A DNA stretch of 41,335 bases from IMG/VR virus record IMGVR_UViG_3300042559_000133, positions 1 to 41,335 of that record. One strand, given 5' to 3'. The DNA is from a virus. Its lineage: Duplodnaviria > Caudoviricetes. Under the pieces are notes generated by a model. The model ran no database searches. It was not told where the DNA came from and worked only from the letters and a program-made list of their open reading frames with translations. A program made the translations under genes and the position numbers. Shown here piece after piece: positions 21,760 through 30,575 of this stretch (positions are counted from its first letter, which is position 1; the number at the start of each line of letters is the position of its first letter).

Positions 21760-22008
21760 TCACCGCTTCAGGCGTAATCCTGCAAGCTGCTCGATCGACA
21801 AAGCCACTCCCTTGTCCTGCGCCATCGAGGCCAACGCAGCCCAATGCTTCTGTGGGATACGTCCACCCGTCCCGCCGGTCTTTGCATCTTTGGACCAGCG
21901 GCTGACGGTCGACGCATGAACACCAAGGGAGCGGCCTATTTCCTGACAACCGCCCAGCATGCGAACTACCCCGTGAGCCGGGTTGAGTGTGTGCTTGATC
22001 TGAGACAT
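21760..22008 (-). CDS. Cro-like HTH regulator, 82 aa
   Basis: MLGGCQEIGRSLGVHASTVSRW...GGTGGRIPQKHW; divergent from the CI-like gene. Confidence 0.82.
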   Translation of the reverse strand: MSQIKHTLNPAHGVVRMLGGCQEIGRSLGVHASTVSRWSKDAKTGGTGGRIPQKHWAALASMAQDKGVALSIEQLAGLRLKR

Positions 22009-22040
22009 GAGGACAAACCTACGTAATGGAAAACGTCGCA

Positions 22041-22108
22041 ATTCTATCGGCTCTTGACACCACGTTGTGCCAAGCGCAACATCTTTGCGCTGTTGCGTAT
22101 CAAGCAAA
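22041..22108. promoter_or_regulatory. Divergent immunity control region with 17-bp operators
   Basis: GTTGTG-CCAAG-CGCAAC (22064-80) and GTTGCG-TATCA-AGCAAA (22092-108); TTGACA at 22054 (+) and TAGAAT at 22046-41 (-). Confidence 0.6.
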
Positions 22109-22121
22109 ACGTGAGAAAACT

Positions 22122-22706
22122 ATGAACCAGAGCTGGTTCCAGGACAAACTGAAGGCACTCAAAATATCGCAGCGTCAGCTGGGCAAGAAGATTGGCCTCG
22201 ACCCCGCCGCTGTTTCCAACATGTTCCAGGGCAAGCGCTCGATGTCCATGGACGACGCCAAGGCGATAGCCGACGTCTTCCTGGTGCCGGTCACCGAGAT
22301 CATGCGCCAGGCCGGCATCGATGTCGTAGATGACGTGCGCAAGGTGCCGATCGCTGGGCACATCGGGCCGGACTGCCAGGTCACGCTGCTGCCTGTGGGT
22401 ACCCATGACATGATCATCGCGCCGGCCGACGTACCCACCGGGTCGTTCGCCCTGCAGATGCGCGCCGTCAATACACCGAAGGACGGCTGGCTGTACTACG
22501 TGTCTGGCTCACAGCTCGATCCGACCGAATGCCTGGACAAGCTGTGCATCGTGGCGCTGAAGGACGGGCTCCTCATGCAGGCGGCCATCAAGCGCGGATA
22601 CAAGCAAGGCCTCTACAACCTGGTCATCATGTGCAGCAGCACGTCCGTCCTGGAGAACAAAGAAGTCGCCTGGGCCGCCAAGGTCCTGTGGATTCTCCCG
22701 ATGTAA
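22122..22706 (+). CDS. CI-like repressor (XRE HTH + degenerate S24-like domain), 194 aa
   Basis: ISQRQLGKKIGLDPAAVSNMFQGKRSM HTH; VPIAGHI linker; C-terminal beta domain ending WAAKVLWILP. Confidence 0.82.
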   Translation: MNQSWFQDKLKALKISQRQLGKKIGLDPAAVSNMFQGKRSMSMDDAKAIADVFLVPVTEIMRQAGIDVVDDVRKVPIAGHIGPDCQVTLLPVGTHDMIIAPADVPTGSFALQMRAVNTPKDGWLYYVSGSQLDPTECLDKLCIVALKDGLLMQAAIKRGYKQGLYNLVIMCSSTSVLENKEVAWAAKVLWILPM

Positions 22707-29509: not shown

Positions 29510-29694
29510 ATCGCATCCGTGAAGTTTTGATCTACGTGTACATGGCCATCGTGGCCTGTGCATCGCTGTACTTTGCAACGAAGCTCGACCAGGTTCCAAA
29601 CAAACCGTCGTGCCAGCTTGTCGAGATCAGCCCAGATTTTTCAACTGAGCACCGCGAGTGGTGCCGCAAGAATAGAGGAGCACACAGACTATGA
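29506..29694 (+). CDS. Small membrane-anchored protein, 62 aa
   Basis: MNRIREVLIYVYMAIVACASLYF hydrophobic segment, then C..VEISPDF...C; GAGG RBS. Confidence 0.65.
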   Translation: MNRIREVLIYVYMAIVACASLYFATKLDQVPNKPSCQLVEISPDFSTEHREWCRKNRGAHRL

Positions 29695-29906
29695 GCACAC
29701 ACCAGCTACCAGTCACCCTGGAAGAAGACATGCGCAAGATGGCCGAGCGGCAGAAGGCCAAGGCCTGGGTCGGCGAGCCGGCAGGGCCGCGCACGTTCGT
29801 GAAGCCTGGCGTCTACACGGGAGCAGAATTGCGCAACCGACGCGAGACGATCTGGGACACTGTGCCAAGCGTCATGGGTGGTCAGAGAATCCCGCGTCGT
29901 GCATAA
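29691..29906 (+). CDS. Hypothetical protein, 71 aa
   Basis: GAGGAG RBS; ATGA overlap; last gene of the early operon. Confidence 0.68.
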   Translation: MSTHQLPVTLEEDMRKMAERQKAKAWVGEPAGPRTFVKPGVYTGAELRNRRETIWDTVPSVMGGQRIPRRA

Positions 29907-29915
29907 TGCTCACAC

Positions 29916-30013
29916 GCTGCTGCGCGTGATGTAGCCCTGTGCAATTTGCAGGGGACAAGCGGTTGAAATGTTGCGATAACTGCTTGAACTTTCTATACAT
30001 TATGCGCAGCAGC
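29916..30013 (+). repeat. Forked inverted repeat overlapping the dif-like site
   Basis: 18-bp outer stem 29916-33/29996-30013 with two G.T pairs, enclosing two inner hairpins (CCCTG...CAGGG and CAAGCGGTT...AACTGCTTG). Confidence 0.7.
29983..30010 (-). mobile_element. dif-like XerCD recombination site (putative attP)
   Basis: Minus strand GCTGCGCATAA-TGTATA-GAAAGTTCAAG vs E. coli dif GGTGCGCATAA-TGTATA-TTATGTTAAAT: XerC arm 10/11, core 6/6, XerD arm 6/11; intergenic. Confidence 0.8.
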
Positions 30014-30033
30014 ACTTTGTTATGTCTCATCAC

Positions 30034-30050
30034 GTTGTGCTATTCTCAAC
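30034..30050 (+). promoter_or_regulatory. Operator overlapping the extended -10 of the DUF3653 gene (leaderless)
   Basis: GTTGTG-CTATT-CTCAAC matches the 22064-80 operator; TGc-TATTCT ends 7 nt before ATG 30054; no SD. Confidence 0.62.
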
Positions 30051-30053
30051 AGT

Positions 30054-30479
30054 ATGGACACCAAGGTGCAGGAACTCATCGACCTGGTTCAGGAGCTCGG
30101 CATGTCACGCGCCGAGCGCCTGCTCAACGTCCATCGCACGACCATAAGTCGCTGGATGAAAAGACAAACCCGCATTCCAGACGCCGCCTTGCTGACCCTG
30201 CGCGCCGCCGCCAAGGGCCAGCTCCCAGGGCAAACCGATCGCACCTGGCAAGGCTGGTCCTTCGACAAGCACGGAACCCTCTGGTCACCTAGTGGTGATC
30301 AATTCACATCAGGCGACCTCATGGCCCAGCGCTATGAGCGTGCCGTCATCCGCGAGCTGCGCAAGGAAATTGCCGAGCTCGAGGCCAAGCTCATCAGGAT
30401 GACCAAGGCCGCCGCCGTGGTCGACCAGGCAGCCAACGACCTCGCCATCTCAGGACCACTGGCCAAAGCCTACGGGTAA
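30054..30479 (+). CDS. HTH + DUF3653-like protein (XafT-like Xer activation factor candidate), 141 aa
   Basis: AERLLNVHRTTISRW...IP HTH, then WQGWSF..HGTLWSPSGDQFTSGDL, the DUF3653 signature as recalled; C-terminal coiled coil; adjacent to the dif-like site. Confidence 0.75.
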   Translation: MDTKVQELIDLVQELGMSRAERLLNVHRTTISRWMKRQTRIPDAALLTLRAAAKGQLPGQTDRTWQGWSFDKHGTLWSPSGDQFTSGDLMAQRYERAVIRELRKEIAELEAKLIRMTKAAAVVDQAANDLAISGPLAKAYG

Positions 30480-30505
30480 AAAAAGACCCCGGCACATGGC
30501 CGGGG
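30478..30505 (-). terminator. Rho-independent terminator of the late/lysis transcript
   Basis: CCCCGGC-N5-GCCGGGG stem followed by a U7 run on the minus strand, between converging genes. Confidence 0.85.
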
Positions 30506-30575
30506 CTGAACCCACGCTGGCGCTTGATTGGGGGAAGGAGTGTCCCACGCCAGGCAGGAGGGGCCGCTGTAGCCG

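Follow-up and report, generated by a model that had tools for sequence, protein, structure and literature searches.

Organization of the dif-like locus

The window is the whole 41,335-nt stretch of DNA of a lake phage analysed here (IMG/VR record IMGVR_UViG_3300042559_000133). Its minus strand carried a 28-bp dif-like site at positions 29983–30010, which read GCTGCGCATAA TGTATA GAAAGTTCAAG. The XerC arm (30000–30010, minus strand; GCTGCGCATAA) was near-intact, and its inner 7 bases were nearly invariant across 43 related sites. The 6-bp core TGTATA (29994–29999, minus strand) was the same as the dif core of several of the betaproteobacterial genomes compared. The XerD arm (29983–29993, minus strand; GAAAGTTCAAG) was degenerate but kept a G at the fifth innermost position. 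A near-canonical XerC arm, a compatible core and a degenerate XerD arm are the traits of the attP of TLC-type IMEXs. On the XerD side, there were a distal (29899–29911; offset +99) and a proximal (29939–29951; offset +59) GTGCA-N3-TGCAC box and an IHF-like motif (29956–29968, minus strand; offset +42). A terminator-like hairpin (30486–30506, minus strand) closed the lysis operon where the two arms of the genome converge.

Against E. coli dif, the XerC arm matched at 10/11, the core at 6/6 and the XerD arm at 6/11 positions, and the 22/28 match given in the first-pass annotation was thereby reproduced. Compared with chromosomal dif sites, the three parts (XerC arm/core/XerD arm) matched at 10/6/5 for G753 and 9/6/6 for G461. 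The best score against two chromosomal dif sites was 20–21/28; the rest of the genome reached 16–17, and the maximum of 200 dinucleotide shuffles was 18–19. The Cf1-like 15-mer that had been noted in the same annotation was also found in the window.

On the plus strand, positions 29916–30013 could form a three-way junction fold (z −3.9) with an 18-bp stem containing G-T wobbles, in which the XerC arm paired with an inverted copy. The fold was retained in relative L002, on the plus strand only. A folded single-stranded attP of the CTX type was rejected as a general mechanism: pairing within the fold was limited to the XerC arm plus 4 core bases, and the inverted XerC-arm copy was present at just 3 of 42 sites.

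The xaf-like gene

The xaf-like gene (30054–30479, plus strand) started 43 bp from the site and encoded a 141-aa protein with an XRE-type HTH, a DUF3653 domain and a C-terminal long helix. The HTH plus DUF3653 gene had been proposed earlier at this position together with a similarity to XafT, and both proposals were borne out. The ORF passed the gathering cut-off of DUF3653 (PF12375; E 7e-9, 36.1 bits against a cut-off of 22.4), and its match to HTH_3 (E 0.003) was below the cut-off. A profile of the family aligned over both domains with the VC1465-like protein of TLC-Kn1 (probability 96.8, E 2.9e-10) and also matched ORF136 of VGJ (probability 95.3, E 2.2e-8). By profile similarity, the protein is homologous to XafT and XafV.

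The AlphaFold model (pLDDT 91.7) contained a small beta region besides the HTH and the long helix, and its best matches were two proteins of uncultured Caudovirales and one corticovirus protein. A Foldseek search of the PDB returned generic XRE HTH matches only, none at E ≤ 0.001, and no match was obtained by tblastn against 50,697 GenBank phages. Weak sigma-70-like hexamers (8/12, judged by eye) at 30017–30046 lay directly before the xaf start, which suggested a leaderless transcript.

Genome structure and virion type

The record was labelled linear and 97% complete. However, its ends overlapped by 254 bp with one mismatch, contigs of 41,111 bp (41,081 + 30) were present in two sequencing runs from which this DNA may derive, and an ORF of 2,916 aa crossed the contig join (window 5209–1 and 41081–37539, minus strand). 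The genome is circular at 41,081 bp, and it had rightly been described as closed. The ORF at the join, a giant internal-virion-like one, escapes linear ORF calls.

A scan of 136 window ORFs found a GP7 capsid, a head-tail connector, Bbp16/Bbp19 and a nozzle, and no tape measure protein. The phage is a short-tailed BPP-1/epsilon15/phiV10-like podovirus, and its capsid was 59% identical to that of phiV10 and 82% to that of Limnohabitans phage DC33. A divergent HTH pair (21760–22706), cro-like on the minus and cI-like on the plus strand, provided a temperate context. In this region there was neither a protease domain match nor operator repeats, so the CI/Cro-like switch of the first-pass annotation held at the HTH level only.

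Six-frame profile searches of the window genome with PF00589, PF00239, PF07508 and ParA AAA_31 gave no match, in agreement with the earlier statement that recombinase and Par genes were absent; as a positive control, the PF00589 search did find the integrase of a sister phage. No tyrosine recombinase was found by six-frame search in 22/22 Xaf-bearing records, six of which were at least 90% complete. In 5/5 complete Xaf-bearing genomes, the searches for a resolvase, a large serine recombinase and ParA were likewise negative.

Module swap with a sister phage

The sister phage G815/L296 (42,347 bp, with terminal repeats) had 36 of the 41 window proteins in common with the window phage, and 66% of the DNA was covered at 75% identity. 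The capsids were 94% identical, and the cro-like and cI-like proteins 47 and 60%. In a scan of 80 lysozyme loci, only the window's twin and this sister were syntenic with the window. The DNA similarity ended at 29703 and restarted at 30477, and an ORF reaching into the swapped interval (29691–29906) was 53% identical to the sister's copy. Positions 29704–30476 of the window were replaced in G815 by a DUF4224 excisionase, a 329-aa PF00589 integrase and a tRNA-Asn attP (the 3′ half of the tRNA gene). G815 had no Xaf, and at the swapped junction it had neither a dif-like site nor the boxes. The integrase and tRNA attP in the interval of this one sister were our strongest argument that the window interval is a lysogeny module. 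Integrase and Xaf were both absent from the four named phages nearest to the window phage by capsid (DC33, zth2-2 and two spring phages), and lysogeny modules are thus optional in this group.

Conservation in related viruses

Xaf relatives with 33–100% identity were encoded at 38 IMG/VR loci, which include near-duplicates and the window's twin (L001). The XerC arm and core were found upstream, within 3.2 kb and in the same orientation, at 29 of these loci, compared with 0/38 on the opposite strand and 0/38 downstream. The other nine had variant arms or cores, or their sequence ended early. Seven relatives' contigs were taken whole and comprised six podoviruses and one siphovirus. The latter (L006/G005, a 31.8-kb contig with a tape measure and a major tail protein) also had xaf together with this site and its two boxes, and the module therefore crosses virion types.

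Some loci differed in detail. Loci L016, L018 and L022 encoded Xaf relatives, and their best dif-like site had a GATAA-type XerC arm with boxes at other offsets; they likely belong to a different host group. The podophage L114/L260 had the site, a box and two cassettes with no Xaf match in the 16 kb examined, and its activator may have been lost, may have diverged or may come from elsewhere in trans. Loci L106, L117, L124, L140 and L165 were low-GC metagenome contigs.

The G at position 5 of the XerD arm was present in 27 of the 29 distinct primary sites reached via the protein, a count that excludes 14 further sites found by a pattern requiring that G; the rest of the arm varied. According to one report, XafT-driven recombination needs XerD-arm position 5, or a T at position 1 (PMC9226527).

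Accessory motifs on the XerD side

The GTGCA-N3-TGCAC box (at least 9/10) occurred at offset 99–102 on the XerD side in all 43 distinct primary sites, which had been picked by core and not by box, and a weaker second copy was often found at offset 59–60. In the background, 8/10 or better was reached by 122 of 6,999 windows. The score for an IHF consensus was highest at offset 42 among the 43 primary sites, where it averaged 5.2 against 2.6 across all offsets; in the 33 cassette sites the peak was at offset 43 (6.5 against 2.5). The window scored 8/9, but many primary sites reached only 4–6. We infer that IHF may bind at 29956–29968. The first-pass annotation had described the site and gene correctly and had overlooked these motifs and the cassette arrays of the relatives.

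Small elements adjoining Xanthomonadaceae-type dif had 12 degenerate sites, none with a box at these offsets, and most of the distant Xaf elements with other recognition helices had no box in the 3.3 kb examined. This suggested that recognition helix and box covary; the covariation is a suggestion and not a proof, because the search by which the loci were collected was itself based on the VHRTT helix. The box was absent from the cI/cro region and was rejected as a CI operator. A role as xaf promoter element is unlikely, because the box stayed with the site where cassettes displaced xaf by 1–3 kb. By eye, it did not match the consensus sequences of NrdR, LexA, ArgR, NtrC or matS sites.

Cassette arrays and exchange at the core

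Many relatives had 2–4 tandem sites in the same orientation around cassettes of 0.35–1.5 kb. Such arrays lay beside the dif-like site at L009, L011, L012, L019, L020, L042, L044, L052, L054 and L056, and also at L114, L154, L182, L206, L207, L208, L226, L244 and L252. The window and L050 carried the empty allele with one site. In the filled alleles L044 and L052, the first site matched the XerC flank of L050 and the last site its XerD flank, with the switch at the core, which is the pattern expected of a circle integrating by core crossover. From these empty and filled alleles, exchange probably takes place inside the 6-bp core, and the site therefore likely recombines. The evidence rests on the L050/L044/L052 alignment and the site tables, because the automatic pairwise breakpoint test flagged one pair only.

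Among 36 cassette ORFs scanned against Pfam and PHROG, there were C5, N6/N4 and Dam methyltransferases, Mom (2), Acb3, an exonuclease, a SLOG protein, NinX and queuine tRNA-ribosyltransferase-like proteins (2). Judged by these family names, the cassettes likely counter host defences. Many of the ORFs matched no family, and if this role is true the arrays would be a place to seek unknown counter-defence genes. One class of cassette sites had mismatched cores, hinting at a XerC-only route.

Search for integrated copies and hosts

None of the genome, metagenome and viral samples examined showed a tailed prophage at dif. One peptide pattern, run against 185,579 genomes, matched at two loci: one was a whole-phage contig that lacked host flanks, the other a non-tailed island. 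Profile searches with weaker homologs matched in 20/401 and 18/401 sampled genomes. Their flanks (19/20 and 18/18 matches), compared with the genes of three phages only, contained no virion-gene relatives except on the whole-phage contig. The pattern loci examined comprised 96 from metagenomes and 63 from viruses, and an integration junction was found in 0/96 of the metagenome loci. The contigs of eight runs, which drop rare forms, showed no joint at the dif-like site among the matches listed.

Distant Xaf homologs adjoined dif in many sampled genomes. Four Burkholderiales genomes contained minimal elements of 1.6–2.1 kb with a xaf homolog, a hybrid site at one end and an intact TGTATA dif at the other (L422, 6094–7802; L426, 9232–10815; L430, 9210–11009; L432, 9185–11243), and compatible targets therefore exist in Burkholderiales. 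In the family tested first, two dif sites differed from the window site in XerC arm and core. Two attempts at host assignment failed: the sister's tRNA-Asn fragment was exact in 8/201 genomes of one family, and a dif pattern matched in 10/201 genomes, near the control level. A low-GC island at a Propionivibrio dif with the core TTTGTA (L060; G022:C1, about 151600–166000) encoded a close homolog of Xaf (38%) that shared its recognition helix, and also had a TIR-domain gene. Genes of tailed phages were not seen in this island, and its second end was not found.

Proposed integration route and alternative explanations

We consider it likely that the phage integrates at host dif using host XerC and XerD switched on by the phage Xaf. 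The anatomy of the locus, the missing recombinase, the exchange of modules and the conservation in related viruses were observed directly in these genomes, and a dif-like site accompanied by a Xaf relative where the sister has an integrase therefore makes entry via host XerC/XerD likely. The claim of the first-pass annotation that an integrase had been replaced by an attP plus XafT module gained from the swap with G815, the joint conservation of site and gene, the XafT homology and the core-exchange hybrids, but no dif integrant was seen. If this reading is true, integrase-free tailed phages annotated as lytic can be temperate, and the hijacking of XerCD by means of a Xaf activator is portable as a module and can take the place of an integrase one for one.

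In the proposed route, the genome would circularise and Xaf would be made. Host XerC would then bind the good arm, and Xaf would activate or stabilise XerD on the poor arm. By analogy with TLC, the full core match would allow both strand exchanges, and these would insert the genome at dif; the prophage end next to xaf would then have an intact dif, and the opposite end the poor arm. As in TLC, Xaf may dispense with FtsK, and the poor XerD arm at one prophage end may limit FtsK-driven excision. More speculatively, IHF would bend the XerD flank, and Xaf, bound through its HTH to the boxes at +60 and +100, would reach the weakly bound XerD. If this holds, the conserved boxes offer a testable answer to the open question of what the HTH of Xaf is for. 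The phage site may also take up small circular cassettes by the same reaction. We put forward only tentatively the wider reading of a widespread tailed-phage group that has no recombinase of its own and uses a lambda-like Xer attP (core, IHF bend and HTH-read arm boxes) both for dif lysogeny and as an integron-like platform for counter-defence cassettes. If true, the cassette arrays would be a new route to phage counter-defence genes.

Several points count against integration. The samples examined showed neither a tailed prophage at dif nor a junction, and the two dif sites seen in the family tested first have another XerC arm and core. The accessory motifs stand in fixed phase, while TLC needs no flanking DNA, and PSB15, a DUF3653 protein, was reported to be dispensable for integration. 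The phased motifs would also suit a site of the cer/psi kind, at which XerCD and Xaf resolve multimers and capture cassettes in a lytic or episomal phage that never becomes a dif lysogen. This would agree with the lack of an integrated copy in the samples examined, with cassette insertion as the sole recombination outcome seen, and with the capsid relatives DC33, zth2-2 and the two spring phages, which do without integrase and Xaf. However, site and gene swap one for one with an integrase and its attP, the core equals chromosomal dif cores, ParA is absent from 5/5 genomes, and the boxes lie on the XerD side beside the activator gene. Cassette insertion implies intermolecular events beside the phased motifs, and such capture differs from resolution-only cer. 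We therefore regard a resolution site as rather unlikely.

Still less probable is that the phage enters dif by a XerC-first route (XafV/VGJ- or CTX-like), or that the ORF is a PSB15-like DNA-binding regulator and not an activator of XerD. The homology to XafV nearly equals that to XafT, and XafV is reported to act on XerC-initiated reactions; the PSB15 precedent, the plus-strand fold of the XerC arm onto its inverted copy (z −3.9) and the many cassette sites with mismatched cores point the same way. Yet all 6 bp of the core and G5 are kept at the primary sites, only 3/42 sites have the inverted copy, and the ORF has the fused HTH plus DUF3653 layout of XafT and not that of PSB15. The small Xaf-bearing elements at dif in Burkholderiales are possible donors of a non-functional relic, but the ORF is intact, and site, spacing and boxes are conserved over podo- and siphoviruses with Xaf proteins 33–100% identical, which leaves a relic scarcely credible. 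Integration at dif by host XerC and XerD with the help of Xaf thus remained our preferred reading.

Comparison with known systems

Gene modules bounded by Xer sites, as in the arrays of the relatives, occur in Acinetobacter as pdif modules. According to a report on plasmid sites, fixed-phase accessory motifs are typical of the resolution-only sites cer and psi, which like the window combine a Xer core with accessory DNA (PMC5357621). Unlike cer/psi and pdif, the sites described here are on a phage and share one orientation; their accessory motifs lie on the XerD side, and the phage itself encodes an activator. Neither such boxes nor phage cassette arrays surfaced in the literature searched, in searches that were aimed at neither.

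The first-pass annotation had held that the characterised IMEXs known to it are not tailed phages, and the novelty drawn from this was overstated. Legionella phage LME-1, short-tailed (PMC12407071), is described as an IMEX at dif using XerL (PMC9765430), so there is a precedent for IMEXs that are tailed. LME-1 resembles the window phage in its short tail; it is temperate and integrates at host dif via a host recombinase. According to the same accounts, LME-1 uses the single recombinase XerL, its 22-bp att is identical to dif, and its activator is merely speculated (PMC9765430, PMC12407071). Unlike LME-1, the window has a degenerate site of the XerC/XerD type linked to Xaf.

XafV and the Xaf module of inoviruses and double jelly-roll viruses have already been published. 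In these reports, the carriers also have a Xaf-family gene at a dif-like attP, and the module moves between unrelated virion types; they differ from the window phage in being non-tailed, with XafV reported for XerC-initiated reactions. In the literature searched, mostly outside subscription journals and main texts only, no tailed phage with a XerCD-type site and Xaf was found.

The closest parallel is the TLC-phi satellite of Vibrio cholerae, a TLC-type IMEX with XafT (PMC6744903, PMC9226527). As there described, it has, like the window, a dif-like attP with a good XerC arm and a poor XerD arm, an adjoining HTH plus DUF3653 gene, no integrase, and G5 kept. The XerCD plus Xaf version in a tailed phage is probably a variant of the TLC-type IMEX, apparently unpublished in the literature searched. 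Unlike TLC-phi, it belongs to a 41-kb autonomous tailed dsDNA phage; the window has phased boxes and an IHF-like motif, whereas TLC needs no flanking DNA; and a module of the window type is interchangeable with a classical integrase.
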